A stretch of 63,674 nucleotides of DNA, the filler included, from Nitrospinae bacterium RIFCSPLOWO2_12_FULL_45_22 (GTDB taxonomy: Bacteria > 2-12-FULL-45-22): NCBI GenBank assembly GCA_001803565.1. It is 5 parts of 5 records of this genome, joined end to end, with 100 filler letters (N's around TTAATTAATTAA, not from the genome) between each part and the next. Parts side by side here need not be neighbours in the genome. Positions count along the whole stretch, not along the records: positions 9,869 to 31,003 come from MHDQ01000120.1; 4 more parts are not named here. One strand, written 5' to 3'. The position numbers and the translations under genes were made by a program. The notes beneath the pieces were generated by a model. It was given only the letters and a program-made list of their open reading frames with translations. It was not told the origin of the DNA and searched no databases. How positions within the stretch are numbered: the first letter of the stretch is position 1; the number at the start of each line of letters is the position of its first letter. This document shows positions 9,769-62,730 of the stretch, piece after piece.

Positions 9769-9868
9769 NNNNNNNNNNNNNNNNNNNNNNNNNNNNNNNN
9801 NNNNNNNNNNNNTTAATTAATTAANNNNNNNNNNNNNNNNNNNNNNNNNNNNNNNNNNNNNNNNNNNN
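9769..9868. other. Artificial contig spacer
   Basis: N-run with TTAATTAATTAA six-frame stop linker. Confidence 0.98.
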
Positions 9869-10627
9869 CAGGCCGAGAGACTTTGCCCCTACCACGGCCC
9901 GCGCCGCATCAAAGAATTTCATCACTACCCTAAAACCCTCTCCTTCACCGGCTATACGGTTAGCAGCCGGGATTCTGGCATCCTCCAGGATAAGCTCTAC
10001 ATTAGGGATGCCGCGGAAGCCCATCTTGTCTTCTTTTTTGCCAACACTGACCCCCGGGGTGCCTTTCTCTAAAATAAAGGCCGTGATCCCATCCACCCCT
10101 TTGCTGGGGTCGGTCTTAGTAAAAAGGGTGATAAAATCGGCAATGTCACCCATAGTACAAAAGCATTTCCGCCCATTCACGATATAATAATCCCCGTCCC
10201 TGATAGCCCTGGTAGTGAGGGCACCGGCATCAGAGCCAGCATTAGGCTCGGTCAGGGCAATACCGGAAAACTTTGTGCCCGTAGCCAGTTGGGTAAGGAA
10301 GCGTTCCCGCTGTTCTTCAGTACCAGCCTTTTCCAGCAACAATACGCTGGTTAGGGGTGTGTTGGCCACAAGAGTGGTTACAGCCAGGGAAACCTTGGCT
10401 ATCTCTTCTACTACCAGACCCAGGGTAGTGAGGCTCTTTACCCCCGGGCCGCCATACTTCTCTGGTACCATCAACTGCACCAGGCCCTGTTTTCCTAAAA
10501 GCTCGGCAATGTCCCAGGGGAATTCATCCGTAGCATCTATCTCCGCAGTCCTTGGGGCGATCTTTTCTGAGGCAATGCGCTTGACAGTCTTTAATAGGAG
10601 TTCTTGTTCACTGGTAAGTTCTAACAC
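9869..10627 (-). CDS. Acyl-CoA dehydrogenase (3' truncated by contig end)
   Basis: ALTEPNAGSDA, NGRKCFCT, GKKEDKMGFRG motifs. Confidence 0.92.
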
Positions 10628-10667
10628 TCCCCTCCCCCCGCATCAGCGAATGTCCGAATAGTATAAC

Positions 10668-10858
10668 GTAACCGTTCAGCCACCAAGGCACTAAGTCACC
10701 AAGGGGTGGCAAATGAGATGTAAACCCCTCGCAAAAAAGTTCAAATGTCAAAGCTCAAATTTATTTGACATTTCGATTTTAATCTTTTGATTTTAACCAT
10801 TGGCCTTAGTGTCTTTGTGCCTTAGTGGCAGAAAGAAGATACACAGGTGAACGGGTAC
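10668..10858. repeat. Intergenic palindromic repeat (second copy near 35667)
   Basis: CCGTTCAGCCACCAAGGCACTAAGTCACCAAG ... CTTAGTGTCTTTGTGCCTTAGTGGC...GAACGG. Confidence 0.65.
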
Positions 10859-10898
10859 ACTATAACTATGATCTCATCCTGGATTATCCAGTACCTTA

Positions 10899-11099
10899 CT
10901 ATTTGCTGCTGAAGACCTTCAGCATCAGCCCCTTTCAGGGTCAGTAACTAACTGTGCCAGTAACTATGCCAGCGAGCCCGATCAGGCCGATAATCCAGCC
11001 CGAACCACCCCCCACTACAAAGGCCAATATAAGGAGAATAATTCCTAAAACCAGCCTGATCATTTGTTCTATTTTCTCCATATTTTTGCTGATAGCCAT
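10899..11099 (-). CDS. DUF2892/YgaP-like two-TM small membrane protein, candidate selenoprotein (SY-U-P-U)
   Basis: AAGGAGGGAGG RBS; MAISKNMEKIEQMIRLVLGIILLILAFVVGGGSGWIIGLIGLAGIVTGTVSY*P*KGLMLKVFSSK; first TGA (10943-10941) sits at the family's conserved Cys-Pro; SECIS-like hairpin follows. Confidence 0.75.
10905..10929 (-). promoter_or_regulatory. Bacterial SECIS-like stem-loop
   Basis: GCTGATGCTGAA-GGTC-TTCAGCAGC; the GGUC loop starts 23 nt and 17 nt after the two UGAs. Confidence 0.65.
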
Positions 11100-11241
11100 A
11101 ACCCTCCCTCCTTAATTTTGGGTTACTCATAGAAAAGTTTCTCTTTTAACCCACAAAACACCTCTGCCAACTGTAAATAGGCAGTAAGGCGTGAGTAGTG
11201 AAGAGTGATCTCTTAACTACTTACTCCTCACTAGTAATTGA

Positions 11242-11613
11242 TTAAGCTGGCAATAACTTAGCTATAAGGGCCTTAATTTGTTCAATTCCAAAGGGTTTGG
11301 CCAAGAAACCATTCGCAAGGCCTTCGGCAAAAACTTTATCCACTTCATTTACTTTATATCCAGAGATGAGGACAAATGGGATTTCAAGGTTTTGGTTTTT
11401 TACGGCTTTAAGTAGTTCTATCCCGCTCATTTGTGGCATACGGATATCCGAGATGATTAAGTCAACTTCATTCCGGGTCAAGGTTTCTAAAGCCTCCACC
11501 CCATTAGCCGCCATAATGGATTGATAGCCTAAAAAGTTTAATATATCCAATAACAGCTCCCGGATGCCTGGTTCATCATCTACTACAAGAATTTTATATG
11601 GTTTCGTCTTCAT
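11242..11613 (-). CDS. Single-domain response regulator (receiver)
   Basis: ILVVDDE, DLIISDIRMP, ISG, FLAKPF. Confidence 0.92.
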   Translation of the reverse strand: MKTKPYKILVVDDEPGIRELLLDILNFLGYQSIMAANGVEALETLTRNEVDLIISDIRMPQMSGIELLKAVKNQNLEIPFVLISGYKVNEVDKVFAEGLANGFLAKPFGIEQIKALIAKLLPA

Positions 11614-11769
11614 AGTTCCTTTTCTCCCTGCTACACCCTAAGTTTCTATCCTTATACACCACCCTATTTTAGTTGTCAACAAGAAAACTTCCTTGCAACG
11701 TCATTAATACAGAGGTAATATCTCTCTCAAATTAGAGATTAAATTAACCACCTTTGAAAGGTTTCGCTA

Positions 11770-13892: not shown

Positions 13893-14198
13893 TTTCACTG
13901 CATAGGAATTTCTATTTTAATAATGCAGTTTTTCAGTATATCAATCCCGAAAAGAGCAAGAGGGTAGAAGTAAAACAGATAAGATGAACCACAAAGCCTG
14001 TCCTGAGCCCTATCCTTAATAAATATCCTCATATCCCTTAATAGCTACTTAGTCATGGCCTCGGAAGTTTGACACCCTTGCCACAATATTGTGGGAGGGT
14101 GTCAAAGTTGGGTTGACTCAATAGGGTTGAAATTAAATGGCTTTTGCTTTATTATTCGTAAAAGAAGACCAAAGAGAAGAGGGAGTAATTTAATCCAA

Positions 14199-15530
14199 AT
14201 GCTTATTGATAAACCTTTATCCATAGATACTATATTTAAGTACGAAAGACCGCTCGAACAGATTAAGAATATCCTCAATGTGGCAAAAGAACTAATGGAT
14301 GCCAACACAGGGGGCAGCGTAACTATTGCTGTAACTGGCGATTGGGGGAGTGGCAAGACCACCATCTTAAAGGGAATGGAAAGCTTTTTTAGAGACCTAT
14401 GTAGCTTTCCGGTGGTCTTTTTTGAGGTATGGAAGTATCATAAGGAAAAAAATCCTCTGGTCCCTTTAATCCTACAAATAAGAGACTCTTTAAGCCTGAA
14501 GGCCAGTATAAAAGGTAAATTAACGAGGATTGCAAAACCCTTATCTGTGATAGGGCTTAATCTTGCAGACCTTGTCTTAAAACTCTCTACCCAGGATAAG
14601 TTGAGTGTAGGCGGGGTAATGACCATTTTTAAAGAGGTTGAAGATATTCAGGAAAATCTAAAATCTAGATACAAGGATAATATCGAAGCCTTAAGAGGAA
14701 CCATTGGGGATTTAATAAAGAATTATGACCCTGATGTGAACAAGGATCAACCATATAGAACATCCTGGCAGGAGTTGGAGAAAGAGAAAGGAAACCTGGC
14801 CTGGCGCTCCTCGGAGAAAAAAATCTTTGTACTCCTTATAGATGACCTTGATAGGCTTGTTCCCAAAAAAGCATTCGCTGTAATAGAGGAGTTGAGGTTC
14901 TACTTTGATATTGATAATGTCCTGATAGTGATGGGGGTAAACGATAGGATCTTAAATGGCTATGTAGAAAAATACTACGGAATAACAAAGGAAGATCATC
15001 ATCTCATTCATAACAGAGGAGAAAAATTTATAGACAAGATATTTCATTGGAACTTTGAAATACCATTTAGTATGTCAGAGGCAATTCATTTAAGAAGCCT
15101 GGAAACACATCTGGAAGAGAGAGAGTTGGAGGCATTAAAAATCCTCCTTCAAGCTATAGACCATCTACCCCATAGGAGATGGGTAAAATTGGTAAATAGA
15201 ATTGAGAAAAAATGCTCCCTGGCATTCAGCAATGATATATATGAGATTGTATTTGCCGCATTCTTAAAGGAACTATTCCCTGACTTTGAGCTATTCTCCA
15301 GAAGATTCCCTTTAATTACATCCGCTCTATATAACCTGTTTGCTGGTGAAGTATTCCATTTCCTTGACTTTACAAAACGTATAAAAGATCAGGATTATTC
15401 AGAAGGGTTGCCAGAAGAAGTTGTAAGTGCAGTAAAGATAATCTTGGACGACAAAACCTACCTGGACCTCCCTGAAAGGAACATCATTACCTTCCATAGC
15501 CGGATTAGGGGAAAGAAGGAAGAGGTTTAA
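14199..15530 (+). CDS. KAP-family P-loop NTPase
   Basis: IAVTGDWGSGKTT Walker A, FEVWKY, LLIDDLDR Walker B, FIDKIF; ATG 14199 preferred as start. Confidence 0.85.
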   Translation: MLIDKPLSIDTIFKYERPLEQIKNILNVAKELMDANTGGSVTIAVTGDWGSGKTTILKGMESFFRDLCSFPVVFFEVWKYHKEKNPLVPLILQIRDSLSLKASIKGKLTRIAKPLSVIGLNLADLVLKLSTQDKLSVGGVMTIFKEVEDIQENLKSRYKDNIEALRGTIGDLIKNYDPDVNKDQPYRTSWQELEKEKGNLAWRSSEKKIFVLLIDDLDRLVPKKAFAVIEELRFYFDIDNVLIVMGVNDRILNGYVEKYYGITKEDHHLIHNRGEKFIDKIFHWNFEIPFSMSEAIHLRSLETHLEERELEALKILLQAIDHLPHRRWVKLVNRIEKKCSLAFSNDIYEIVFAAFLKELFPDFELFSRRFPLITSALYNLFAGEVFHFLDFTKRIKDQDYSEGLPEEVVSAVKIILDDKTYLDLPERNIITFHSRIRGKKEEV

Positions 15531-15531
15531 T

Positions 15532-16506
15532 ATGCCCCTCAGTTTAGATGAATATTATAGAAGCGGTCATCTCTATCTTGAGTCAGAGAGAGGGAGAGAG
15601 GAGGTCTTTACCCTTTTAGCGAAGGAGCTTGAAACCAGCCTTAAGGAAAATAGATGGAGAAAGGCTCTATGGGTAGCAGATAATATATATGATTTTGTGA
15701 AGAAGAGTAATCTGATCTATGCCAATTTTGACCTCCCAAATCTCTCCGGGTTGAGACAAGAGAGTGATGAGATCAAAAAAAGTGCCCTTAAATTTTTAGG
15801 AGAGAAAGATAATATCAAATTATTCAAAAAAGCAATTGTCAGGATGGACAAGGCATCCTATAAGTCCAGGGTCTTTCTCATCCTCATTAAATACCTGCCA
15901 GAGATAGAGGGCCTTCCCCTGGTACACTTTACGGATCTGTATCTTATGATCTTTAATACCCTCTATTTTCTGGATAAGACCGAGGGGGCAGAGGTAGAGA
16001 GGTTTGATCTGGGCGATATGCTGGTAAGGGCCTCCTTAAGGTATGATTGCCGTGAGATGTGCGCATCCTTTCTGAGTGATCGGAAGCTAAAAGACCTTCT
16101 GGATTCCGAGGAATACAGATATAGATTTACTCCCTATAGAGAGTATGGGAGCAAACTCGTTAAGGCATTGGACAATATGGATAAGAAAAACAAACCTGAG
16201 GTAGCAGTACTTACCCCCTTTGTCTTTACCGATATGCTCTTTTACCTTATTGATGAGCGTTTTGAGGGGCGTCTCAGGAAGGGGTTGATTGAGGGGAAGG
16301 AGAAGATACTCCTGCATATCAGAGAGAGGGTGGATGGCCTGTTTGAGGGTGATGATAAAGAGCTCTTAAAAGAAATGATCTCTTTTCGTATCAGTACAAG
16401 GATAGATGAACTGGCTAAATCTAAACCCTTTGGTCCGGGCTATTCTGTAGCTAAAGAGCTTCCTTTTCAGTTTCAAAATCAGAGGATAGAGAACCTAAAA
16501 GATTAA
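15532..16506 (+). CDS. Hypothetical helical protein co-transcribed with the KAP NTPase
   Basis: 324-aa ORF starting 1 bp after the KAP stop, with GGAAGAGG RBS. Confidence 0.75.
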   Translation: MPLSLDEYYRSGHLYLESERGREEVFTLLAKELETSLKENRWRKALWVADNIYDFVKKSNLIYANFDLPNLSGLRQESDEIKKSALKFLGEKDNIKLFKKAIVRMDKASYKSRVFLILIKYLPEIEGLPLVHFTDLYLMIFNTLYFLDKTEGAEVERFDLGDMLVRASLRYDCREMCASFLSDRKLKDLLDSEEYRYRFTPYREYGSKLVKALDNMDKKNKPEVAVLTPFVFTDMLFYLIDERFEGRLRKGLIEGKEKILLHIRERVDGLFEGDDKELLKEMISFRISTRIDELAKSKPFGPGYSVAKELPFQFQNQRIENLKD

Positions 16507-19500
16507 GGAACCACTCGAACCTCTGGAGATAGAGAGGTGAAAGCGTTGTCCTAGCAACCATATCCTGAAATCCCTTCTTCACCTTTTCTGTGCCAATCCT
16601 TTCAAAGGTCTTATTCCTGATAAAGAAACCGATTATCCCTATCGCAAGTCTTTTATCCTTATCCCAGAATATGTCAAAGACCTCAAGGAAGTCACGGATA
16701 TATCCGGCTATCTCCGGGTAGTCAGGGGGAGAGATACGGGTAGAGGAATCTATTAAAGGGGGTAAGGTTGCAAAAAGATCTTCATAATCCTTCCTCCCTC
16801 TGTAGATATCAAGGGCCTTCTCATAGTATTCTATCGCCCTGGCATAATCTCCTCTGGCTTGATAAACCATTGCCAGATTGTTGTAGGTAGCAGCAGTATC
16901 GGGGTGGTCTCTGCCCAGCCTGGTCTCCCTTATCTTAAGGGCCTTCTCATAGTATTCTATCGCCCTGGCATAATCTCCTTTGGCTTGATAAACCACGGCC
17001 AGGTTGTTGTAGGTAGTGGCAGTATGGGGGTGGTCTTTGCCCAGCCTTGACTCCACTATCTCAATGGCCTTCTCATAGTATTCCATCGCCCTGGCATAAT
17101 CTCCTTTGGCTTGATAAACCATTGCCAGGTTGTGGTAGGTAGCGGCAGTATCGGGGTGGTCTTTACCCAGCCTTGACTCCACTATCTCAATGGCCTTCTC
17201 ATAGTATTCTATCGCCCTGGCATAATCTCCTTTGGCTTGATAAACCACGGCCAGGTTGTTATAGGTTTGGGCAGTATCGGGGTGGTCTTTACCCAGCCTT
17301 GACTCCCTTATCTTAAGGGCCTTCTCATAGTATTCTATCGCCCTAGCATAATCTCCTTTGGCTTGATAAACCACGGCCAGGTTGTTGTAGGTAGTGGCAG
17401 TATGGGGGTGGTCTCTGCCCAGCCTTGACTCCCTTATCTTAAGGGCCTGCTCATAGTATTCTATCGCCCTGGCATAATCTCCTTTGGCTTGATAAACCAT
17501 TGCCAGATTGTTGTAGGTAGTGGCAGTATGGGGGTGGTCTTTACCCAGCCTTGACTCCACTATCTTAAGGGCCTTTCCATAGTATTCTATCGCCCTAGCA
17601 TAATCTCCTTTGGCTTGATAAACCGATGCCAGATTGTTGTAGGTAGCGGCAGTATGGGGGTGGTCTTTACCCAGCCTGGTCTCCTTTATCTTAAGGGCCT
17701 TCTCATAGTATCCTATCGCTATATCATACTCCCCTCTGGCATGATAAACCCCTGCCAGATTGTGGTAGGTAGTGGCAGTATCGGGATGGTCTTTACCCAG
17801 CCTTGACTCTATTATCTTAAGGGCCTTCTCACAGTATTCTATCGCCCTAGCATACTCTCCTCTGGCTTGATAAACCGATGCCAGATTGTTGTAGGTAGCG
17901 GCAAGGTCTTCATCTTCCTTTTTAATCTCTTTAAGGCTTTCCTCAAAGGTTATGAGAAGGTTCTCTGTAACTATCTCACTCAACCCCTCCCATTGAGAAA
18001 GGGTTATGAAGACCTTGAGGAGATATTCTTCTATGTTTCTATCCATTGTCTCCTGATGGTAAGTTGTAAAGATAGAAAGGATGTTCATCAGGTCGTATGG
18101 GGTCAAGCCCTCTTTATCTCCTCCTAAGATATGGAGGAGTTTGTCCTTCAGTAGGGTTAGACCTTCTGCCCGGAAGTCACCTTTGAAGTAGGACTTTATG
18201 ACCTGATATGGCAGGTAGTGGTCAGCAAGCCTCTTCAGGATAAGGAGTCTCTCTGTAAGGAGGGAGATAAACCCTGCCTCAAAGAGGTGGTTAAGGAGGG
18301 TCTTGGAAAAGGGATATTCCAGGGAGAAGAGCCTCTCTGTTTCTTTTCTGTTACTTTCAAAATAGGGCCGGTAAAACTCAAGGACTTCTCTTAGCTCCCC
18401 TGTCCCAAAGACCTTGTCCAGTGATATGCCCCTCTTTTCAATCACTGCGGAGAGGGAGAGTGGATGATAGCCATAGAGGGCTACTATGAAGGGTAGATTC
18501 TCTTTGAAGAATGCCTTTTCCTTTTTATCTAAACCCTGGTACAGGAAACCTACTTCGCCATCGCTATATTCACCGATCTCAAGGGTATTCTCAAGGGGTT
18601 GTCTGGTAGAGAGATAGGGCTTCAATCGGCTGGTAAGGATGGTAAAGGCCGTTTTTGTGTTTAAGATTTCGCTTAAAAATCTCTGATACCTATCCCGTAT
18701 TACCCCCTTTTCATCCTGTATGGACTCAAGGTTATCAAGGATAAATAGCCAGGGGGTAGCAATCTTCTCATTCAAAATTCTCCACTTCTTTATAAAGTCC
18801 TTCCCCTCAAGCTCCTCCTTACTTATAATTTCCTCGCGTTTAAACTCCTCAAGGAGCCTCTCCACCAGGGCCTCAGGGGTGTCTATATGTTCTGCTCTCA
18901 GGTCAATAAAAATAATGTGTTTAAACCTGCCCTCAAAAAACTCTGCTAGATAGGCCGCCAGGGTGCTCTTCCCTGCCCCACCGATCCCGTGAAGGACGAG
19001 ATGGTTCTGATCCCCCCCTATCAAATCCGAGGCCTGCCTAACGATACCGTATCTATAGACATAGTTCTTGATAGTCATTGGGGGTCGGTAGATGACCTTT
19101 TTTGCCTTTTCCCTTTTCTCTGCCTCCCCTTTAAGGTCAAAGCCCCCCTTTCCGGCTTTACCGAATACAACGGGTTTCCACCAGTCTATATTAAGCATCA
19201 GCCTCGCATCGTTTAATACATTCTCAATGGTCTCCTCTTTAAAGACCCTCTGGTAAATGAGCCTGGTGGTTTGGGTAGCCAGGTCGTCTCTTACCGGCGC
19301 GAGGTTGGCAATGACCATGGCTGAGTCAATATTTTGGAAGATATTATAGGCGAGGGATGGGGCATAGGGGGAGGGTTTTGCTGTCTCACAGGCATTGAAG
19401 TAGAAGAGGGCTACATTGGCGCCCTCAAAGAGTCTCTTTAGTTCATCTGAAGTAAGGCGCTTCTCTCTTTCATTGTCCTTCTCATCCTCTATCGCCAGCA

Positions 19501-20134
19501 AACCACCCCCGGCACCATGCCCAATAAAGTGGACGATGTGATAGTGCCCTCTCAAGAGCCTCTTCCTCACAGTGGGTAGGTTTACCTTCTCCTCGATATC
19601 TATCTGCACAAGACCCTTTCTCAAGTAATCATCAAGGGCGGTGTATATGGTCTGGAGCTCTCTCAAGGGATCAATGGGATGCTCCTCATAGGTCTCAAGG
19701 GGGAGGGAGAGGAGGGTAAGGATCCTTATAGGTAGTTGGGCTGGGAGTATCTTTTTGTCCAGGGCAGGTATGTCTCTCAGGATAGAGATATTCCCCCTCT
19801 TTAGCAAAAATCCCGTCTCTGTCCTATCATTGTTAATAATCTCAAAGGGGAGGCTATGGAGCTGCGGGTCATTGGATTTGATGGTGATATTCAGGCTGTG
19901 CTGGTCCTTTAGTTCCTCGAGGATAAGGGTGATCCTTTCTCTCCTCTTTGCGGTGGCGAATATGCTATGGAAGAGCTCAAAGCCGTAGGCAATGAGCTCA
20001 CTATCCGGGAGGCGGCCCTCTTTAAGGAGCTTCTCTTGATAATAGGGGCTCAGACTGTAGGCTGTCGGTTCATCACCATCAACCGAGACTGTATCTTTGG
20101 TGATAAAGATATCCATGTTCTTCTTTTCTCCCAT
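16451..20134 (-). CDS. CHAT (caspase-like) protease - STAND/NB-ARC NTPase - TPR protein
   Basis: LPFE, HFIGHG and FNACET His/Cys dyad; GIGGAGKS Walker A, LFILDNLE Walker B; nine 42-aa TPRs. Confidence 0.88.
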   Translation of the reverse strand: MGEKKNMDIFITKDTVSVDGDEPTAYSLSPYYQEKLLKEGRLPDSELIAYGFELFHSIFATAKRRERITLILEELKDQHSLNITIKSNDPQLHSLPFEIINNDRTETGFLLKRGNISILRDIPALDKKILPAQLPIRILTLLSLPLETYEEHPIDPLRELQTIYTALDDYLRKGLVQIDIEEKVNLPTVRKRLLRGHYHIVHFIGHGAGGGLLAIEDEKDNEREKRLTSDELKRLFEGANVALFYFNACETAKPSPYAPSLAYNIFQNIDSAMVIANLAPVRDDLATQTTRLIYQRVFKEETIENVLNDARLMLNIDWWKPVVFGKAGKGGFDLKGEAEKREKAKKVIYRPPMTIKNYVYRYGIVRQASDLIGGDQNHLVLHGIGGAGKSTLAAYLAEFFEGRFKHIIFIDLRAEHIDTPEALVERLLEEFKREEIISKEELEGKDFIKKWRILNEKIATPWLFILDNLESIQDEKGVIRDRYQRFLSEILNTKTAFTILTSRLKPYLSTRQPLENTLEIGEYSDGEVGFLYQGLDKKEKAFFKENLPFIVALYGYHPLSLSAVIEKRGISLDKVFGTGELREVLEFYRPYFESNRKETERLFSLEYPFSKTLLNHLFEAGFISLLTERLLILKRLADHYLPYQVIKSYFKGDFRAEGLTLLKDKLLHILGGDKEGLTPYDLMNILSIFTTYHQETMDRNIEEYLLKVFITLSQWEGLSEIVTENLLITFEESLKEIKKEDEDLAATYNNLASVYQARGEYARAIEYCEKALKIIESRLGKDHPDTATTYHNLAGVYHARGEYDIAIGYYEKALKIKETRLGKDHPHTAATYNNLASVYQAKGDYARAIEYYGKALKIVESRLGKDHPHTATTYNNLAMVYQAKGDYARAIEYYEQALKIRESRLGRDHPHTATTYNNLAVVYQAKGDYARAIEYYEKALKIRESRLGKDHPDTAQTYNNLAVVYQAKGDYARAIEYYEKAIEIVESRLGKDHPDTAATYHNLAMVYQAKGDYARAMEYYEKAIEIVESRLGKDHPHTATTYNNLAVVYQAKGDYARAIEYYEKALKIRETRLGRDHPDTAATYNNLAMVYQARGDYARAIEYYEKALDIYRGRKDYEDLFATLPPLIDSSTRISPPDYPEIAGYIRDFLEVFDIFWDKDKRLAIGIIGFFIRNKTFERIGTEKVKKGFQDMVARTTLSPLYLQRFEWFLNLLGSLSSDFETEKEAL
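16800..17910 (-). repeat. Nine tandem 126-bp coding repeats (TPR)
   Basis: Unit about TATTYNNLAxVYQAKGDYARAIEYYEKALKIxESRLGKDHP, nearly identical at DNA level. Confidence 0.92.
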
Positions 20135-20739
20135 GACCTTTTATGCACAGGTAGGTGTTAACTCAGGCCCCTCTATTTACCATAGATTATATGGTAATCT
20201 AAAACCCTTCCTGACATCAAGATTTTTCTCATTTCGCCTATTCTTCTTGACTCCGCGCGAAATCCTTTAGAATATTCCCGGGTGCTGCCCCCCCCCTTTT
20301 TTTTCTGATCCCGCTTGCTTAAGAAACCCCTAAGACGTGTGGATGGTTTTAAATTAATAAACCTCCAAAACCTTTCTATGAGATTTAAACCCGAGTTTCA
20401 GATTTGGGCTATTCCATGACGGAAATATTCAGTAAAAACTAATTAAATTCTTTGTGTCCTTTGTGGTAACAAATTTAACTTACAAAAATTGTTTGACAAG
20501 AAAGGAATTAGTATGCTACAAATATTTAATTTATCGTCGCTTTTTGCAATCAATTCCCCCTGAAAACTGGGGGGGGTCGTAACAGTTTAGCCCAATAAAG
20601 CATCTCATGGATTATTTGTAGTGGCAAAGCTTGTCTGGCAAAGACTTTTTCCGTGGCAACTAACTANNNNNNNNNNNNNNAGCTTGTCTGGCAAAGACTT
20701 TTTCCGTGGCAACTAACTAGTTATTAAAGGAGATAAAGG

Positions 20740-21761
20740 TTGCTAGAAGTAAATTTTACCCTGGTGGTTCAGATGGCCCTTTTTCTGGTTACCATGTTTT
20801 TGTTAACAAAGTTGCTCTTTAAGCCCATCATGCAGACCCTGGAGAAAAGGGATGCAGCTATTTATGGTAGCCGGCAAGAGGTAGAAGTAAAAGAAAAGCA
20901 GTTCAAAGAACAGTTAGAGAATTATCATACCACGATAGATGCTGCCAGGAGGCGATTAGCAGAGGAGTTGGCTCAAAAAAGGAAAGAGGCAGAGGCCGAA
21001 CAAGCCGCCCTACTAAATAAGGCACGGGAAGAATCTTCTAATCTATTAGATGAGGCCCGGATAAAGATAAAAGAAGAGGAAGAAAAGGCCAGGATAGCCC
21101 TCAGAGCGCAAGGCCAGCTATTCGCCTCATTTATAGTGCGGAAGCTGTTAGGCCGCGACCTCTTGCAAAAGACATTAGGACTATTGCCCTTATTCTTATT
21201 GGTCCCCTCAGTTGCTATCTTTATTTTCCCGGCGCTGCTTTGGGCGGTAACCGAAGGCCCTGCCCATAACGGCGGAGTGCCAGCCGAACAGTACATTAAG
21301 CTGGCCTGGCAAATCATCAACTTCATTGTCTTAGTGGTTGTACTATATCTACTCATGCGCAAGAACCTGGCAGATTATTTTGTCCAACGTAGTAACACGA
21401 TAGGGACAGAGATTGATGCAGCCCAAAAAGCCCGGATAGAGATGGAGCGAAAAATTAAAGAGTATGAGGCAAGACTGACAGGAGTGGATCAGGAGGTTGC
21501 TCGTATGCAAAAAGAGGCACAGAAGGAGATGGAAGCCCTCCGGCAAAAGATGCGGGAAGATACTAAGCGGGTTTCAGGGCTGATCTTGCAGCAATCCCAA
21601 AAAAGTATCCAGTTAGAGACTAAAAGGGCGCAACAAGCCCTGCAGGCTGAAGCGTCTTTGCTGGCTATCAACCTTGCCAAGGACATTTTGAAACGGGAGA
21701 TAACCCCAGAAGACCAGACCCGCCTGGTCCAGAACTATATCGGTAAGATAGGAGAGTCAGC

Positions 21762-21765
<4 letters not shown>
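20740..21765 (+). CDS. atpF: ATP synthase F0 subunit b'-b fusion
   Basis: Two b-type modules (LLFKPIMQTLEKR...KLLGRDL and QIINFIVLVVVLY...YFVQR) in one frame; AAGGAG RBS with TTG start; upstream of atpH. Confidence 0.85.
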
Positions 21766-31003: not shown

Positions 31004-31103
31004 NNNNNNNNNNNNNNNNNNNNNNNNNNNNNNNNNNNNNNNNNNNNTTAATTAATTAANNNNNNNNNNNNNNNNNNNNNNNNNNNNNNNNNNNNNNNNN
31101 NNN
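31004..31103. other. Artificial contig spacer
   Basis: N-run with TTAATTAATTAA. Confidence 0.98.
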
Positions 31104-38456: not shown

Positions 38457-38556
38457 NNNNNNNNNNNNNNNNNNNNNNNNNNNNNNNNNNNNNNNNNNNN
38501 TTAATTAATTAANNNNNNNNNNNNNNNNNNNNNNNNNNNNNNNNNNNNNNNNNNNN
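38457..38556. other. Artificial contig spacer
   Basis: N-run with TTAATTAATTAA. Confidence 0.98.
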
Positions 38557-49334: not shown

Positions 49335-51680
49335 CTATGAACTAGGTGGCTCCTCCAGACAGAACCCGATATCAACTGCGACGCAAAACGCAAACCCATG
49401 GCTGTCATAGTTGGTGCGGTCACACACCACCATGTGAATAACGTACCCGCAGGGGTCCATATCAGTCGTGTCCAGTCTCCAATAGCCCGATTCGCCTGTG
49501 GTAGGCACCGTCGGGAAGGAACGGCTAGTCGCGAAGGTATAAGTAATTCCTCCGTCACCCGAGAGCATGACCGTGGCCCCGTGGGCTGGCCCGTCTGGGA
49601 TGACGTCGAGGCTTACGCTCCCGAAGTGCTGGTTGACCAGGTCGCTCGTGCCAGGGTCATGGACCTCGTACGTACCGGTCAGGATGGTACCCACGGGAAA
49701 CTTACCGCAGTCTATAGCCGGAATGGGGTTGCCGTTGAACGTAGCACCGGTGATGGTCAAGGTAACCGGGGCGTATGGCTGAAGTGCAATATTTGCCGCA
49801 GGGACTGACGATGGGGCGGTGTTGTCAACGCGCACCCTGATTACCTGCGCTCCTGGATAGAGTGTAGGAGGACTGACATTCGGGTCTTTCGCCTCCATTC
49901 TGATCTCCCATTCGCCTTCCATCGAGGCGTTCGTCAGCCACCTGGCAAGTTTATCCACCACCAGGAAGCGGGTGGAGGGAGCCGTGTGGTCTTCCAGGTA
50001 TTCGTACCAGCCCTCGCCCAGGCCATCGCCATCGTCAGTGGCCGTGAGGTTGAGGTTAAATATTGTATCACCCGGCGATTCCTCTTGCTGCACTGCGCCT
50101 ATGAATTTTGTGACGTCAACTTCTATCGTGTTGGTGAGCGGATGCCAGGTGTCAATGCCGTCATCTTTTCGGACCAGGATTCTGTATTTCAGTGGTAAAG
50201 CCCCGCCGCCATAGGAATCTGGCAGGGTGCCTGCAATGCGTCCGGTGATGGTAATGCCGCCTCCAAATGGACTCAAGGTTACTGAGAAGGCGCCGATCTC
50301 CGCATCGCCGGTAGCCAGCCCGGTGGCTGGATCAATGTCATCAACTGCGATATCGCCAACGGTCTCGATAACCGGGCTACGTGCCACCGCTTTGCTAGGC
50401 CGCAATTGGATGAGGCATTCCTCGCGATTTCCCCAGACCGGAACATAGTTCGGGTTCGCGGGGGGCGGTGGGGTCTCCCAGGATAGAATGGCGCGTAGAC
50501 GGACGATCTTCGGCCCAGCTTCACAGGGCACGAGATACTGGGAGAAGTCTTTCTTGAGAAAGACGGCATACTGGACATCCTCCGGCGGGATGGTCTGGAG
50601 GTCGTGGACCTGCGCGGTGGCTGTGCCCATATAGGTGAAGCCGCTGCCGTCGCCGAAGTCGATCCAGAAGGCCACGTACTCTGTTGACCCCTTGGCACAT
50701 AGCCCGCCGGAATAGCCGGAAGACCTTTTGATCGTGAGCACTGCTTCTAGCAGGTCGCTTTGTGGGCGAAGACCGACGCATCTTAGCTCTTCATAGCTGG
50801 TGTCTCCGTCCGTTACGATCTGGAGTTTGCCGAAAAGCTCCGCGATTTCGCTCACGCTAAGTCCAAGGGACGCTAAAGGACTATCACCATTCGCTGTGAC
50901 TAAGGCTGAGGTTACCGTCTTGGCCGTCAGGAGCGTCTGCGCCTCTGTGAAACCGAAGCGGTGAACCGGCACGCCCTTGTTCGCATAGAGCACCTTCTTC
51001 TGGGAAAGGCTTAGAGTCTCCAGCGTAAAAGGTTTAATTGTGATATTTGGGTCCAGGCCAGCAATGACGGGGCCGATTGGGTCCGGGATCTTGACCTGAA
51101 GGTCAACAAGCCCTTTTACCAGGTCACCCACGAAGAAAGAGTACTTGGGTTGAATCTGGACCTGGACGGTCAAGACATTCCCATAGACCGGCGGCCAGTT
51201 GGGTTGATTTGCCGGCGGCGGCGTGTCCCAGGAAAGGATGGCTCGCACCTTGACGATGTTCTCGTTGGTGCAACGCTTCTTGAACGGGGTAAAGTCCTTC
51301 CTCACGGCGTAGCAGAGGGGCTTGCCGCCAGGGATGTTATGGACTCGCACACTGCTCAATCCCACATCGTGCCAGACACCGTTGTCATGTATGTCGACGT
51401 AGAACCGAACATACTCAAACGATCCTTGGCTGCAGATGTCGCCTCCGTATCCAAACTCCTGCTTAAGGTGGAGCACAGCTTCCAGGCGGTTGGATGGAGG
51501 GTTTAGCCCCACACACATCAACTCTTCATAGGTCGTAACGCCTTGCTGAAGCTTGACTGGCTTGTATGGACTCAACTCCAGGTTGCCGAAGTAGTTGGGG
51601 TTTTGTAGGATCAACGAACGGAACTGTGCCCGCTCTCGTTCTAATGTTGTTGTGTTTTCGGAATTTTCACAGGTTTTCAT
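49335..51680 (-). CDS. Hypothetical 781-aa protein with an internally duplicated Cys-containing domain of about 130 aa
   Basis: YEELxCVGL..LEAVL...GY.G..C..GS.EYV.F..D...RAILSW.TPPP...P...PV.GN occurs twice; AAGGAGG RBS. Confidence 0.85.
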   Translation of the reverse strand: MKTCENSENTTTLERERAQFRSLILQNPNYFGNLELSPYKPVKLQQGVTTYEELMCVGLNPPSNRLEAVLHLKQEFGYGGDICSQGSFEYVRFYVDIHDNGVWHDVGLSSVRVHNIPGGKPLCYAVRKDFTPFKKRCTNENIVKVRAILSWDTPPPANQPNWPPVYGNVLTVQVQIQPKYSFFVGDLVKGLVDLQVKIPDPIGPVIAGLDPNITIKPFTLETLSLSQKKVLYANKGVPVHRFGFTEAQTLLTAKTVTSALVTANGDSPLASLGLSVSEIAELFGKLQIVTDGDTSYEELRCVGLRPQSDLLEAVLTIKRSSGYSGGLCAKGSTEYVAFWIDFGDGSGFTYMGTATAQVHDLQTIPPEDVQYAVFLKKDFSQYLVPCEAGPKIVRLRAILSWETPPPPANPNYVPVWGNREECLIQLRPSKAVARSPVIETVGDIAVDDIDPATGLATGDAEIGAFSVTLSPFGGGITITGRIAGTLPDSYGGGALPLKYRILVRKDDGIDTWHPLTNTIEVDVTKFIGAVQQEESPGDTIFNLNLTATDDGDGLGEGWYEYLEDHTAPSTRFLVVDKLARWLTNASMEGEWEIRMEAKDPNVSPPTLYPGAQVIRVRVDNTAPSSVPAANIALQPYAPVTLTITGATFNGNPIPAIDCGKFPVGTILTGTYEVHDPGTSDLVNQHFGSVSLDVIPDGPAHGATVMLSGDGGITYTFATSRSFPTVPTTGESGYWRLDTTDMDPCGYVIHMVVCDRTNYDSHGFAFCVAVDIGFCLEEPPSS

Positions 51681-51714: not shown

Positions 51715-52255
51715 GTCGAGTAGATCGGTTTCTCCCGATGCTACAGGTTGAGGTTTGTTTTCTCCGTTTTCTGCCTGGTTTCCCGGCAGTACCACAATAT
51801 TTCAACCATACATCAGTTGGCCCCAACCCTTTCCCTCCCCCGGTATTACCCGGCCTCATTGGTAATATGGGTTGATCCGACTACCTATGCTCCGTCCTCT
51901 GGCCTCGTCTCCTCGGCTTCACGTACCCACATTGCTGCAGGAAAGCATAGGTCCTCCCAGGTTCCTGTGAAATCCCTTGGACAGCATGCCATGGACTATG
52001 ACCCCGGTGGAGTATCCGCCATCTCACCTATATCGATGGCTTCGTTGCTGTCTTCCGTGTTCCTTAACCACGTCGACTCGCTCCACATCATAAGCATTTT
52101 CGGAACTGAATACCTTCACCCTTACGGCCTACTGCCTCCCTGTTTACGCTCCACCCATACGATTACCCGTATAGATGCAAAACTCGGGACGGTCGGCTAA
52201 CTTTATCAGGTTGGCTTCTCAACCAACTGAATCTCACAAGCTTGGCCTGGCGCAC
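51715..52255 (-). ncRNA. ORF-less group II intron derivative (domains I-III and VI; IV-V deleted)
   Basis: 5' GTGCG, 3' CTACTCGAC; DIII GCCGGGTAATACCGGGGGAGGGAAAGGG; EBS1-like loop TAAGGAA complementary to the flanking TTCCTTA. Confidence 0.8.
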
Positions 52256-52371: not shown

Positions 52372-53793
52372 AGGTTTTAGGACATAGCTTTGCCGGAAAG
52401 TTGGCTATATGGCAGATCATCGCACGAGTAATTGACCAGGGTTCCAGGCTTTCCGCTGTTCGGCTGGCACAAACACACGCAGCATGCGACCTATTAGAGA
52501 TAACACGTGGATTTGATGAGAACGATCCCTACGACAATCTAAAATGGTTAGCCGATAATCAGGAAAAAATCGAAGATAGTCTATTCCGATCAAGGCGTGG
52601 TAAAGATAAGCCACAAATATTCCTTTACGACGTAACAAGCAGTTATTTAGAGGGTGAAAGAAATTATTTTGCTGAGTACGGCTATCCACGCGACCAAAAA
52701 AAGGGGAAAAAACAAATAGTCATCGGATTATTATGTGATGAGTATGGTGCTCCAGTCTCTGCAGAGGTCTTTGCTGGTAATACACAGGATCCACAAACGT
52801 TTTGCTCGCAGGTTAAAAAAGTGGCAGATCGCTTTGGTTGTGAGAATGTAACATTTGTAGGTGACCGAGGGATGATTAAAAGCGCTCAGATAGATGCTCT
52901 ACCAGAAGGTTTTCACTACATTACGGCAATAACCAAGCCACAGATACATACTTTAATTACTCAAGGTCTCATTCAGATGGGGTTATTTGATGAGAAGATT
53001 TGTGAAATTGAGGATGACGGGGTGCGTTACATCCTGCGACGCAATCCATGTCGTGAAGATGAGATCGCCAAGACCCGCTTGTCAAAGCGTCAGTGTATTG
53101 AGAAATTTATTAGAGAGAAGAATCTCTACCTGGATGAACATCCGAGGGCTAAGGTATCCGTAGCAATAAAAGAGGTGGAAGAGAAGATAAAACGTCTTAA
53201 AATTGACATCTGGTTGAAAGTTGAGGAGCAGAATAGGGTATTAAGTTTGAAGCAAGATGATACCGCACTAAAAGAAGCATCCCTTCTGGATGGTTGCTAC
53301 GTGATTAAGACTGATCTTCCTAAAGAGGCAGCAGATAAACAGATTATCCATGATCGTTATAAGGATTTAGCTTTAGTGGAACAAGCTTTTCGTAACTGCA
53401 AAACTGTGATTCTGGAAGTTCGGCCAGTGTTTGTGCGGACAGAGAAGAGTACTCGTGGTCATGTGTTAGTAGTGATGCTTGGATATATGATTGTACGGAG
53501 GCTCCATCAGGCCTGGGCCGGGTTTGATTTGACTGTTGAATAAGGTCTTAAAAAATTATCAACTCTTTGTTCCATAGAAATGAAAGTCAAAAATAATAGT
53601 TCTTATTTGAAGATTCCTCGACCACGGAAGGAATCCAGGGAATTATTGAATGCATTAAATATTAGGATGCCTATAGTCTTGCCTCATCGGGAGGTGAATG
53701 TAGACACTAAGAAAAAATTGCCAAAGCAACGCAAACTCCTTTAAAAATAATGCCTTATGACCAAATCATACCTTATCTTTTGGGGTGAACAGG
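52372..53793 (+). mobile_element. IS1634-family transposase pseudogene
   Basis: FLYDVTSSYLEG, YGYPRDQKKGKKQIVIGL, VGDRGM, VEQAFR; N-terminus missing; premature TAA at 53541 with the frame continuing to 53744. Confidence 0.85.
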
Positions 53794-57334: not shown

Positions 57335-57434
57335 NNNNNNNNNNNNNNNNNNNNNNNNNNNNNNNNNNNNNNNNNNNNTTAATTAATTAANNNNNNNNNN
57401 NNNNNNNNNNNNNNNNNNNNNNNNNNNNNNNNNN
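57335..57434. other. Artificial contig spacer
   Basis: N-run with TTAATTAATTAA. Confidence 0.98.
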
Positions 57435-57926
57435 TTGAATCTGAAAGATACCTACAGCGAATCTGACCTGGAGGCTGCGATTCTCAGGGAACTGGAATCT
57501 TTTATTCTGGAACTTGGCGCAGGATTTACCTTTATTGCCAGACAGAAGCGAATGACAATTGATAATGAAGACTTCTACCTCGATTTACTCTTTTACCACC
57601 GTAAGCTGAAACGGTTGGTGGCTGTTGAACTCAAACTGGGAAAGTTTAAAGCGGCATTCAAGGGACAGATGGAACTCTACCTGCGGTGGTTGAAGAAGTA
57701 TGAAAAGGAAAAGGATGAGACCGATCCCCTTGGACTGATTCTGTGTGCTGAAGGCTCTCATGAACAGATTGAATTGCTGGAGTTGGATAAATCTTCCATT
57801 AAGATAGCGGAATATCTAACCGAATTGCCTCCGAAAGAATTACTGGAAAAGAAACTTCATGCAGCGATTGAGAAATCTAAAGAATTGCTGGAGCAACGGG
57901 CAGGAGAAAAGAAGGAGAAAGGATAG
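57435..57926 (+). CDS. DUF1016/YhcG PD-(D/E)XK protein, C-terminal part
   Basis: ELGAGFTFIARQKR, DLLFYHRKLKRLVAVELK, GQMELYL, GLILC. Confidence 0.9.
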   Translation: MNLKDTYSESDLEAAILRELESFILELGAGFTFIARQKRMTIDNEDFYLDLLFYHRKLKRLVAVELKLGKFKAAFKGQMELYLRWLKKYEKEKDETDPLGLILCAEGSHEQIELLELDKSSIKIAEYLTELPPKELLEKKLHAAIEKSKELLEQRAGEKKEKG

Positions 57927-57932
57927 GGAAAA

Positions 57933-60900
57933 ATGAATAAAATAACTGCCAAACAAAGCAATCCATTCTCTACAGGTGGTGGAGGGGTAAATTTTGAGAT
58001 TCGTGTTCAAGCAGTATTTGTTACATTGATGATGACTGGAGGATTTGCACCCTGTTTGCCTGCATGGCCTATCAACAAAATTAAACTACAAGGGAAATAC
58101 AAAGGGTTTGATACCGATGACTTGATTATTTTTACTAAAAGTCCAGATGGTGAAAAAGAGAGAAAACTACTTGGTCAGATAAAACACTCTATCAGCATTA
58201 CTGAGGATAATAAAGAATTTGGAAAAGTAATTCAAGCTGCATGGAATGACTTTAAAAATCCAAAATTATTTACAAAAGAGTCAGACGCTATTGTACTCAT
58301 TACCGGCCCCTTAAGTGTCTCAGACATTAATGATGTACGGATAATTCTTGAATGGGCGCGTGATTCAGAAGATGCATCTGATTTTCTAACAAAAGTCAAT
58401 CTGGTTAATTTCAGCAGCAATGCAAAGAGAAAAAAGTTGAGAGCTTTTCAAAAATGGCGATGCTGACCTTTCAGATGATGATCTCTGGCGGTTTATGAAG
58501 AGCTTTCACCTTCTTGGGTATGACCTTGATACTAAGTCAGGCATAATCCTCTCGTTACTTCGATCTCTTATAGGTCAGCATTCTCCTGAAAACGCGCAGT
58601 CACTCTGGGCGCAGATTATTGATGAGGTTCAATTAGCAAATCAAAACGCTGGAACTATCACAGTAGATTCGATTTCTGAAGAACTTCGCTCTGCATTTCA
58701 AAGGCGGACTGTGACGACAGTTCCTATTGACCTTACCCGAATACCGTCAGTACAGGCGATAACAGATTGGAGCAAAATTAACTATGCTTCAGAACTTGCC
58801 ATTGCAAGCCTTTTGGGCTCATGGGATGAAAAGTCAGAGGCGGATAAGGCAATTGCAGGACAACTCGCCAACAACGATTTCGCAGGCTGGATTCCTAAAA
58901 TACGAGAGATTCTACAAGTACCCGAAAGTCCGCTTACTCTCAAAAATGGCAAATGGTCTATTAACAGGCGATTAGACTTATGGCAAATAATTGGTCCAAG
59001 ACTGTTCGATGAACAACTTGACCGTTTCAAACAACATGCCGTTAATGTGCTGAAAGAGCACGATCCAAAATTTGAGCTGCCCCCGGGAGAACGATATGTA
59101 GCAAGTATCCACGGGAAAGTATCTCGCTATTCCGGGAACCTTAGAAAAGGACTGGCTGAGAGCCTTGTTCTTCTTGGTAGCTATCCCCAAGCGTTAAACA
59201 ACTGCTCAACGAACAAAGCAGAGACTATTGCCGCTCTTGCCATAAGAGAGATATTTGAAGAAGCAGATTGGATTCTCTGGGGAAGTTTAAACAATCTGTT
59301 GCCGCTCTTGGCTGAGGCATCTCCAGATCAGTTCCTTAATGCAGTCGAAGAGGCTCTACAAACCAAGCCATGCCCATTTAACGAATTGTTTGCCCAAGAG
59401 GGAAATGGTATCACTGGTGGTAACTATATGACCGGCTTACTCTGGGCGCTTGAAGCACTTGCTTGGGATGAACAATACTTGACTCGTGTCACTGTCATAC
59501 TTGGAGAACTGGCCATACTCGATCCAGGAGGCAACTGGGCGAATCGCCCTGCCAATTCGCTCACAACAATTTTCCTCCCTTGGCTCCCTCAAACAACTGC
59601 ACCGGTTGAGAAACGCAAAGTTGCGATTCAGACGCTTCAGAAAGAACTGCCTGATGTTGCATGGAAACTTCTGCTAAGTCTGTTACCCAACCAGCATCAA
59701 ATCTCTACAGGGTCGCATAAGCCAGCTTGGCGTCAGACGATACCCGAAGAGCGATCAAAGGGAGTTACTCATCAAGAGTATTGGGATCAGGTGACATACT
59801 ATGCAGATATGGCCGTTGATGCGTCTCAGGTTGATTTATGCAGATTAACCAAGCTGGTCGAGCATCTTAACAGTATTCCACAACCCGCATTTGATAAACT
59901 GCTGGCATATTTTGAATCTGGAGAAATAACTGGCAAGCCAGAAGAAGAGAGGCTCCCACTGTGGACTAAACTTGTAAATTTTGTTGTAAAACATAAAAGA
60001 TATGCCGATGCAAAATGGGCATTGAGCCCTGAACTGGTTGAAAAAATCAGCAAAATTACTGAAAGACTTGCTCCTCAAAATCCTAAAAACTTATACCGAC
60101 ACCTTTTCAGTAGTCGGGATTTAGATCTGTATGAAGAAAGCGGCAATTGGGAACATCAACGAAAGAAATTAGAAGAACGCCGACAAAACTCTATCCGGGA
60201 AATTCTTGCAAGAGATGGGATTGGAGATGTGATTAAGTTCGCCGAGGATGTTGAGTCCCCCTGGCGTATTGGGCTATCTTTAGGTTTTGTTGCTGAAGAT
60301 AACGCGGACTCAGTAATGCTGCCGAAATTGTTGGACTCAGGAAACAATAGGTCTGCCCAATTCATAAGTGGTTTTATCGGGAGCCGCTACCAGAACCAAG
60401 GATGGACATGGGTAGATCAGACTGATACGTCAGGTTGGTCAACAAAACAAATAGGTCAATTCCTTGCTAACCTGCCTTTTACAGATGAAACATGGAAACG
60501 TTCTAAACAGCTCCTAGGAGCCCATGCTGCTAAGTACTGGAGCAAGGTCGTTGTGAACCCTTATCAGTCAGAAGGAAGCATTGAAGAGGCCATTGATAAA
60601 TTGATGGAATATAACAGGCCAAAGGCTGCTCTTAGCTGCATACACTTTAAGCTATACAATAAACAGCCATTGGACCAGGTTCGAACAATAAAGGCACTGC
60701 TTGCAGCAGTCTCGTCAACAGAACCTGCTTATTCAATAGATGTGTACCAGACGGTTGAGATTATCAAGGCCCTGCAGAATGATCCTAATACTGCTCCCGA
60801 TGATCTGTTTCTGGTTGAATGGGCTTATTTACCGCTTCTTGATCGACACCAGGATGCTTCACCGAAACTGTTAGAACAGCGACTGGCGTCTAATCCGGAA

Positions 60901-62717: not shown

Positions 62718-62730
62718 AAAGGATGGCACT

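Follow-up and report, generated by a model that had tools for sequence, protein, structure and literature searches.

Two in-frame UGA codons ahead of a single SECIS-like hairpin: a probable Sec-Pro-Sec selenoprotein in the DUF2892/YgaP-like membrane protein family

In the genome of Nitrospinae bacterium RIFCSPLOWO2_12_FULL_45_22 (GCA_001803565.1), we analysed a stretch of DNA of 63,674 nucleotides (nt), hereafter called the window, and within it a short gene on the minus strand, whose reading frame contains two UGA codons separated by a single sense codon. Read with both UGAs as selenocysteine (Sec, U), the coding sequence occupies 10902..11099 and specifies 66 residues (M1...Y52-U53-P54-U55-K56...K66). 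A ribosome-binding site (AAGGAGGGAGGG, 11113-11102) and the start codon ATG (11099-11097), both read from the sequence, are separated by 2 nt. The 52 sense codons that follow encode MAISKNMEKIEQMIRLVLGIILLILAFVVGGGSGWIIGLIGLAGIVTGTVSY (ending in GIVTGTVSY) and lead to the first in-frame UGA (UGA1; codon 53, 10943-10941), which occupies the place of a Cys conserved in the DUF2892/YgaP-like family and is read here as Sec. Next come the Pro54 codon CCC (10940-10938) and the second in-frame UGA (UGA2; codon 55, 10937-10935), probably a second Sec and otherwise a stop. Eleven sense codons (AAG GGG CTG ATG CTG AAG GTC TTC AGC AGC AAA, giving KGLMLKVFSSK) then run up to the tandem terminators TAG (10901-10899) and TAA (10898-10896), likewise read from the sequence on the minus strand. 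Two transmembrane helices are predicted: the first comprises approximately residues 14-29 (11013..11060; the hydrophobic stretch IRLVLGIILLILAFVV, limits estimated), the second approximately residues 34-52 (10944..11000; from a structural model and the sequence), ending just before the proposed Sec-Pro-Sec motif. Taking all evidence together, we consider it probable that the gene encodes a two-helix inner-membrane selenoprotein of 66 residues, DUF2892/YgaP-like, with a second helix that ends in Sec-Pro-Sec.

A hairpin with the features of a selenocysteine insertion sequence (SECIS) lies within the coding tail. It is reached from UGA2 through a 10-nt spacer (AAGGGGCUGA, 10925..10934, minus strand), which comprises the codons of K56, G57 and L58 as well as the first base of M59. 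The hairpin itself (UGCUGAA-GGUC-UUCAGCA, 10924-10907, minus strand, identified by folding) consists of seven base pairs (bp) and a loop of 4 nt at 10917-10914, and at the same time codes for M59-L-K-V-F-S64. Its loop starts 23 nt after UGA1 and 17 nt after UGA2, its stem 16 and 10 nt after them; the distances of 23 and 17 nt, which a preliminary description of this DNA had given for the start of the hairpin, thus hold for the loop and not for the stem. The same description had noted the strong ribosome-binding site, the two-helix DUF2892/YgaP-like frame, the TGA-CCC-TGA sequence and the tail up to TAG, all of which are present on the minus strand. Its statement that the gene is absent from the listing of open reading frames (ORFs) is correct for the full frame, whereas a piece of 52 amino acids (aa; 10941-11099) is listed. 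In the public protein collection, too, only this 52-aa stump (P0001) of the gene is found, recorded on 34 contigs.

The nucleotides in question are well supported by independent assemblies. A metagenome contig (L001) equals the window over 361 nt without mismatch, and Logan contigs of the runs X9 (spanning 10675-11410) and X19 (10674-10953) show 0 differences. The Logan contig of run X10 (10699-11650) differs at six positions, all within 11027-11073, and represents a strain variant: five of the six differences are synonymous and one changes Leu16 to Val (codons read by eye), while the TGAs, the tail and the hairpin are left untouched. At 10935-10943, for which base-call errors had initially been considered, all four contigs (L001, X9, X10, X19) agree at the TGAs. 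The samples in which this DNA occurs are from groundwater and soil. No RNA run is listed among the public runs containing the stretch of the gene; X19 is labelled metatranscriptomic yet flagged as probably DNA, and its contig was not counted as expression.

These data bear on the possibility that the two TGAs are an artefact or signify a different kind of recoding, be it faulty sequencing or assembly, a pseudogene, or a TGA read as Trp or Gly throughout the genome. Two homologous proteins (P0007 and P0008) were indeed translated by their source with TGA as Trp, and the window contains nine runs of N. However, the N runs are located elsewhere, the nearest one to the UGA site being 9825-9868, the same letters stand at the site in independent contigs, and the variation in X10, with five synonymous changes out of six, fits purifying selection. 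Moreover, 30 window ORFs backed by a Pfam match end in TGA (8), TAA (12) or TAG (10), and the ATP synthase gamma gene, whose Pfam match is full-length, is among those closed by TGA. Since TGA stops eight of the 30 Pfam-backed ORFs, a general reassignment of this codon (NCBI tables 4 or 25) is excluded, and we regard an artefact or other recoding as an extremely improbable explanation.

Family membership is clear. Residues 4-59 of the read-through protein align with positions 2-58 of the 66-position profile PF11127 (YgaP-like_TM, formerly DUF2892), at 47.2 bits and E 2.4e-12; the 52-aa form scores 35.0 bits, the curated cut-off being 25.3 bits, and no NCBIfam model matches the read-through protein. 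A HMMER search of 1.84 billion representative proteins returned 53 matches, 52 of which were aligned together with three closer relatives, giving 55 rows besides the window; the match left out (P0005) looks like a chimeric copy of the protein encoded in the window itself. In the column of UGA1, Cys is present in 44 of the 55 homologues and is followed by Pro in 41, as the preliminary description had claimed for DUF2892/YgaP-type proteins. Eight rows end exactly at this column, a single one lacks the Cys, and two (P0007 and P0008) read W-P-W and then KG[LF]MLKVFSK, their source having rendered both TGAs as Trp. In the column of UGA2 we find Leu (25), Val (6), Ala (5), Pro (3), Ile (2), Ser, Arg and Gly (1 each), Trp in both W-P-W rows and a gap in the eight truncated ones. 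The closest relatives (P0002-P0004) are 79-85% identical to the window's product and all end at Tyr52. Of the two positions at which homologues with Cys or UGA were to be looked for, the aligned rows show Cys at UGA1 and in no case at UGA2.

Two kinds of relatives help to place the gene. The Cys-type DUF2892 proteins resemble it in matching PF11127, in their equal size, in their two hydrophobic helices and in an N-terminal K-N-x-G...R motif, and the conserved Cys-Pro closing their helix 2 aligns with UGA-CCC of the window gene; they differ in having Leu, Val or Ala in place of UGA2 and a tail of the type x-Y-x-L-L-G-I-S-T, as opposed to K-G-[FL]-M-L-K-V-F-S-K in the two-UGA subfamily. In single-UGA DUF2892 genes (L095, L096, L097), the UGA likewise takes the Cys position and precedes a Pro codon, and the coding tail again contains a hairpin. 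Unlike the window gene, they contain only one UGA, the ordinary family tail (U-P-L-[WY]-x-V-L-G-I-S-T) and a different hairpin (GUGCU-CGGGAUC-AGCAC), whose loop starts 17 nt past the UGA. Run over 301 genomes of the phylum sample, the general PF11127 model detected a DUF2892 gene in 151 of them, and among the 150 places listed, two have two TGAs and three have one.

How widespread is the two-UGA form? A degenerate DNA pattern for the tail, in which both UGA positions were left free, was run against 185,579 species, each represented by a single genome. It returned 25 places: four were chance matches and 21 represented this gene, all with Tyr-TGA-CCN-TGA, nearly all of them in metagenome-assembled genomes labelled Thermodesulfobacteriota or Deltaproteobacteria (Syntrophaceae, Syntrophorhabdus, Desulfobacteraceae). 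Because such a pattern forces the tail, a motif-free search was also made, in which a profile of the subfamily was run against six-frame translations with stops read through. Among 401 genomes of the phylum, it found 54 places, 16 with two in-frame TGAs and 38 without any stop. The latter, ordinary Cys homologues, score at most 45 bits, and 15 of the 16 two-TGA places score 57-104 bits, so that the two-UGA subfamily is cleanly set apart (at least 57 versus at most 45 bits) save for one GC-rich outlier of 37.5 bits. In 55 genomes of a single order, all 16 places found have two TGAs, and as many as three copies occur in one genome. Relatives of the window gene were also sought in metagenomes, where the two matches obtained are the identical L001 and an unrelated ATPase gene, L002; a genome scan with N-terminal peptide patterns gave no match.

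The pooled set comprises 37 unique genes, including the window gene and one with a broken N-terminus (L012), and TGA is found in all 37 at UGA1 and in all 37 at UGA2. In none of the members found by the profile searches is either position taken by Cys, another sense codon, TAA or TAG. The codon between the UGAs varies (CCC 25, CCG 4, CCT 4, CCA 1), with Pro in 34 genes and Leu in three. In contrast, the hairpin core CUGAAGGUCUUCAG is invariant in all 37 genes: the codons CTG AAG GTC are found in 37, TTC in 36 and AGC in 35, with no synonymous change, whereas third positions vary freely in the coding sequence upstream of the UGAs. Frozen codons of this kind demonstrate, on comparative grounds, a constraint at the RNA level, as expected of a hairpin bound by a protein. 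The spacer between UGA2 and the hairpin behaves differently and, as far as aligned genes can tell, like codons: its first codon is Lys in 35 of 37 genes (AAG 19, AAA 16), its second is Gly in 34, for which four codons are used, later ones are Phe/Leu/Ile and then Met/Leu/Val/Thr, and variation falls mostly on third positions (summed entropy 2.9, 1.0 and 3.9 at codon positions 1, 2 and 3). The 16 unique genes obtained beyond the pattern scan, through the profile searches and a follow-up of matches, follow the same trend with more substitutions. Past the hairpin, the frame remains open over at least one and up to eight or more codons, largely for Lys, Glu and Asp. The final terminators, inspected in 29 genes, are TAG (13), TAA (6) or TGA (5), and in five of the 29 lie beyond the 60 nt examined: true terminators drift, the internal second TGA never does. 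As TGA-NNN-TGA and the hairpin are kept in 37 of 37 unique genes, the feature is more than chance.

Some members of the subfamily deserve separate mention. One genome (G319) contains two diverged copies with a putative Sec-Leu-Sec, L077 (G319:C74, 827-1024) and L094 (G319:C363, 382-579), which share a longer tail, SKKSCKWT, adding a Cys; genes encoding an MBL-fold hydrolase and a NifU-like protein lie next to L077. The GC-rich 37.5-bit outlier, L093 (G169:C14, 1501-1698), keeps TGA-CTC-TGA, and its hairpin CUGAAGGUCUUGGG contains a G-G mismatch (-4.6 kcal/mol); this copy may be decaying or may use a variant element. In L012 (also L110; approximately 1877-2036), the N-terminal half is disrupted by a stop and by unrelated sequence before helix 2; it nonetheless retains TGA-CCC-TGA and the hairpin and probably reflects either recent pseudogene formation or a faulty assembly.

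The conservation just described has to be reconciled with the way in which all gene callers read these genes (P0001-P0004, P0006 and others), namely with both UGAs as stops. This would leave a DUF2892 protein of 52 residues without the family Cys, and the hairpin would be a terminator, a stability element or another 3' element. We consider such an explanation very unlikely. The stop would hit the most conserved residue of the family, and it would do so throughout a subfamily; the TGAs, the Pro codon and 30 nt beyond them are conserved despite N-terminal parts that are only 38-55% identical to that of the window's protein; and parts of the Sec machinery are present in all 15 carriers of the phylum sample as well as in the five carrier genomes G001-G005. 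An intrinsic terminator was looked for as well: 10600-11700 contains 0 sites resembling one, and downstream of the hairpin stands GCAAAUAGUAAGG, with no U-run.

Does the hairpin qualify as a bacterial SECIS? According to PMC13188914, a review of 2026, the bacterial model comprises a loop of 3-9 nt with a G in the first two loop positions, an upper stem of 4-16 bp, a distance of 16-37 nt between UGA and loop and a minimum free energy of -7.5 kcal/mol or lower. For both UGAs, the element of the window agrees with this description (loop of 4 nt, GGUC; stem of 7 bp; 23 and 17 nt), with fold energies of -8.2 kcal/mol for the 20-nt core and -9.3 kcal/mol for the 39 nt after UGA2, although the bare 18-nt hairpin, at -7.4 kcal/mol, narrowly misses the limit. 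Taken alone, an 81-nt stretch does not fold in an unusual way (z -1.1), and it is therefore conservation, not folding energy, which constitutes the evidence. Rfam gave no match at the hairpin, even loose thresholds yielding nothing meaningful there, and no bacterial SECIS family is among the Rfam matches of the window. A direct comparison was made with E. coli fdhF, where a GGUC loop with a closing A-U pair starts 18 nt downstream of the UGA (codon 140). The apical AGGUCU, with G23 and U24 in its loop, which the preliminary description had named for fdhF at a similar spacing, is identical in the window, where the loop follows UGA2 at 17 nt; in both genes, the element is situated inside the reading frame. 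UGA2 thus stands almost exactly at the fdhF loop distance and UGA1 two codons further out. Together with the Cys column and the TGA kept in all 37 genes, a hairpin that fits the published model, with an invariant core, supports the earlier proposal for UGA1, and we are confident that, on this evidence, this codon would be read as Sec.

For UGA2, the preliminary description had offered two options, a second Sec or a protein that ends at Sec-Pro. In the second case, UGA2 would be a stop, the protein would count 54 residues, and the SECIS would lie wholly in the 3' untranslated region with the tail conserved as RNA only. Engineered bacterial SECIS elements do work when placed after a stop codon, the hairpin part of the tail is under constraint at the RNA and not at the protein level (no synonymous change in 37 genes), and none of the 55 homologues has a Cys at the second position. 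A plain stop would, however, be expected to drift as the true terminators do (TAG 13, TAA 6, TGA 5), which is not the case in any of the 37 genes; a UGA standing 10 nt before a hairpin that binds SelB, near the spacing of fdhF, could hardly escape decoding as Sec; downstream of it, the spacer varies in the manner of codons, with Lys, Gly and hydrophobic residues kept and wobble positions free; and the single-Sec relatives L095 and L096 have a translated tail of similar length. Termination after Sec-Pro therefore seems unlikely to us, though less so than two plain stops. Of the two options, Sec at UGA2 is the better supported one, through the TGA in 37 of 37 genes and the codon-like variation downstream, but it is not proven; that both UGAs encode Sec appears quite probable from these comparisons, and that a single SECIS hairpin recodes two UGAs six nt apart, resulting in a membrane-embedded Sec-Pro-Sec site, is likely.

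The Sec machinery was examined in genomes carrying a gene of the subfamily. In the five carriers G001-G005, both selB and selA were found in five of five, above the curated cut-offs. Among the 15 carriers of the phylum sample, each has parts of the machinery, and 11 have selA. The four without a selA match (G280, G318, G368, G404) possess a tRNA-Sec in all four cases (73-80 bits), selB in three and selD in three. The selD genes of G280 (C55:11675-12601), G368 (C101:6550-7473) and G404 (C252:1471-2397) contain one in-frame TGA each and hence represent the selenoprotein form of selenophosphate synthetase. The presence of the machinery in carriers shows compatibility, not a specific association. 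The window itself contains no tRNA gene, and a scan of it for other TGA-joined ORF pairs resembling selenoproteins gave none, the seven candidates being neighbouring genes or off-frame.

Several points weigh against a translated Sec-Pro-Sec protein decoded from one hairpin and should be stated together. The usual test by Sec/Cys pairs fails for UGA2, because Cys is found there in none of the 55 aligned homologues, and no sense codon, which would have proved that the tail is translated, was met at UGA2 in the subfamily members recovered. With regard to the variation counts, 21 of the 37 genes stem from a pattern that forces K-G-[LF]-M-L-K-V-F, which biases that part of the comparison. The hairpin never varies and so offers no compensatory changes; a lower stem, in which the Phe codon pairs with post-hairpin codons in some folds, was considered but discarded, as C or U at the Phe wobble position does not track G or A opposite to it. 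The E. coli SECIS, according to the review PMC8659212, needs a bulged U in the stem and a stem spacing fixed at 11 nt from the UGA. The window stem, by comparison, is a perfect 7-bp helix without the bulged U of fdhF and lies 10 and 16 nt from two UGAs instead of 11 nt from one, and we found no experiment showing one hairpin to serve codons 10 and 16 nt away. The evidence for the machinery comes from other genomes carrying the subfamily gene; selA is without a match in four of the 15 phylum-sample carriers, and its co-occurrence carries little weight in any case, since selA is present in 371 of the 401 genomes of the phylum sample. Finally, residues 53-66, the tail, obtain less than 50 in the predicted local distance difference test (pLDDT) of the structural model.

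That model, from AlphaFold2, shows a plain helical hairpin formed by residues 3-29 and 34-52 (mean pLDDT 66.5), the predicted transmembrane helix 1 lying within the first helix; a profile search of sequences in the Protein Data Bank (PDB) gave no match. With Lys and Arg at either end of the protein and only a short loop joining the helices, both termini together with the Sec-Pro-Sec motif are probably cytoplasmic, at the membrane surface. Sec usually replaces a catalytic or metal-binding Cys, for which reason the lone conserved Cys of DUF2892/YgaP-type proteins is singled out as the candidate working residue of a widespread family, and its substitution by Sec, being that of the only invariant Cys of the family, tentatively suggests a residue acting as a nucleophile, in redox chemistry or in the binding of a soft metal. 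Another Sec two positions later would suggest a diselenide/selenol pair or a chelating site. Cys-Pro-Cys motifs are known from P1B-type metal ATPases, where they bind soft metals within a membrane helix, and from Mia40, where they form a redox-active pair: in these motifs, too, two chalcogen side chains are split by Pro, but the analogy involves no relation in sequence or fold, and here it would be Sec in a helical hairpin of 66 residues. Our best guess is that the two Sec would act as a redox couple (diselenide/selenol) or would chelate a soft metal or a sulfur/selenium species; like the membrane redox or sulfur/selenium carrier role of the preliminary description, this is a guess of low confidence.

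The genomic neighbourhood adds little to this. Among the 81 ORFs flanking 27 loci of the subfamily, no conserved partner was found and neighbours differ between clades; a convergent BacA gene is seen in seven loci, a transporter of the major facilitator superfamily (MFS) in five and a pair of radical-SAM and PTS-EIIA genes in three. The 49 ORFs flanking Cys-type relatives include only three sulfur-transfer proteins, two rhodaneses and one DsrE-like protein, too small a number for any conclusion.

With respect to earlier work, a full-text search of the literature retrieved no paper joining DUF2892 with the term selenoprotein and none naming PF11127; papers combining YgaP with selenocysteine, or mentioning DUF2892 alone, are unrelated judging from title and abstract. 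A term search in the preprint by Haft on eight new families (10.1101/2022.07.06.499078) found no mention of the family, and the text supplements of deep-Sep and BSepDB contain neither DUF2892 nor YgaP nor PF11127, while PDF and bioRxiv supplements, which might list the family, were outside this search. PMC13188914 counts 119 prokaryotic selenoprotein families, 'a small subset' of which have two to three Sec, often with a presumed metal-binding or redox role; the motifs given in its Table 1 include UxxU, UxxxxU, CU and CxU, and the strings UXU and UPU are absent from its text. The double selenoproteins described there share with our candidate more than one Sec per chain, but the U-x-U proposed here is spaced more tightly than UxxU and UxxxxU. 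The family is thus missing from the selenoprotein lists checked, and no paper describing it was found. A selenoprotein with Cys homologues is of a familiar kind; Sec-Pro-Sec decoded from a single hairpin, as proposed here, would be a novel form of bacterial Sec recoding.

Further features of the window were recorded in passing. Between the selenoprotein gene candidate and an acyl-CoA dehydrogenase gene, a stretch of 36 nt (10668-10703) recurs between differing flanks on many contigs from four metagenome runs; on contigs of X9 and X10, 10704 is followed directly by 10814, with 109 nt left out, and an imperfect inverted repeat is present at 10736-10752 / 10764-10780. The intergenic stretch 10668-10814 looks like a small repeated or mobile insertion, similar to miniature inverted-repeat transposable elements. 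The N runs in the window, at 9769-9868, 20667-20680, 31004-31103, 38457-38556 and 57335-57434, are mostly pairs of 44, and the pair at 9769-9868 breaks the acyl-CoA dehydrogenase-like ORF just downstream of the selenoprotein gene candidate. The sole Rfam match in the window is a group II intron D1-D4 RNA (51992-52219, minus strand, 108.8 bits), accompanied by the ORFs 49335-51680 (minus strand) and 52401-53543 (plus strand); a DDE transposase ORF stands beside the intron, and an ORF of 780 aa in this region is without a Pfam match. A KAP-family P-loop NTPase (14091-15530, plus strand) and, near it, a CHAT-domain protein of 1226 aa that contains numerous TPR repeats (16451-20134, minus strand) could be a defence or signalling module, and the region 57435-63672, with a YhcG-type PDDEXK nuclease, a 991-aa ORF without Pfam match, the S subunit of a type I restriction system and the start of the R subunit, looks like a type I restriction-modification island. 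The ORF of the ATP synthase b subunit (20740-21765) has 341 aa with two ATP-synt_B profile stretches and may be a fused b/b' or have a mis-called start. The ATP synthase beta of the window reaches no more than 78-79% identity with its counterparts in 151 phylum-sample genomes, which does not place the organism.

Returning to the proposed Sec-Pro-Sec protein, decoding could proceed as follows. SelB with Sec-tRNA(Sec) would bind the GGUC hairpin, and Sec would be inserted at UGA1 with the hairpin 16 nt behind the codon; two codons on, Sec would be inserted again at UGA2 with the hairpin 10 nt behind, close to the 11 nt of fdhF and standing at the entrance of the ribosome. Only one hairpin is possible, as the six nt between the codons leave no more room, and the second Sec would need a second charged SelB, or a SelB reloaded in place, at this one hairpin while the Pro codon is being read; it may be speculated that the slow chemistry of peptide-bond formation at Pro allows time for this second delivery. 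The ribosome would then melt the hairpin and translate through it into the basic tail KGLMLKVFSSK.

Public protein sets contain the family only as stumps of 52 residues or as Trp mistranslations, and it has accordingly been missed in annotation and in counts of selenoproteomes. With two UGAs six nt apart and one invariant hairpin, the gene lends itself to examining, in a compact natural setting, how strictly the UGA-SECIS distance is kept in bacteria and whether SelB can act twice at one site. If the proposed decoding is true, SelB would be replaceable or rechargeable at one hairpin within two elongation cycles, and the rule of an 11-nt spacing, drawn from E. coli fdhF, would lose its generality. 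In the DUF2892 family, which is very large, the one invariant Cys would likewise be marked as a reactive residue, with a redox or metal-binding function.

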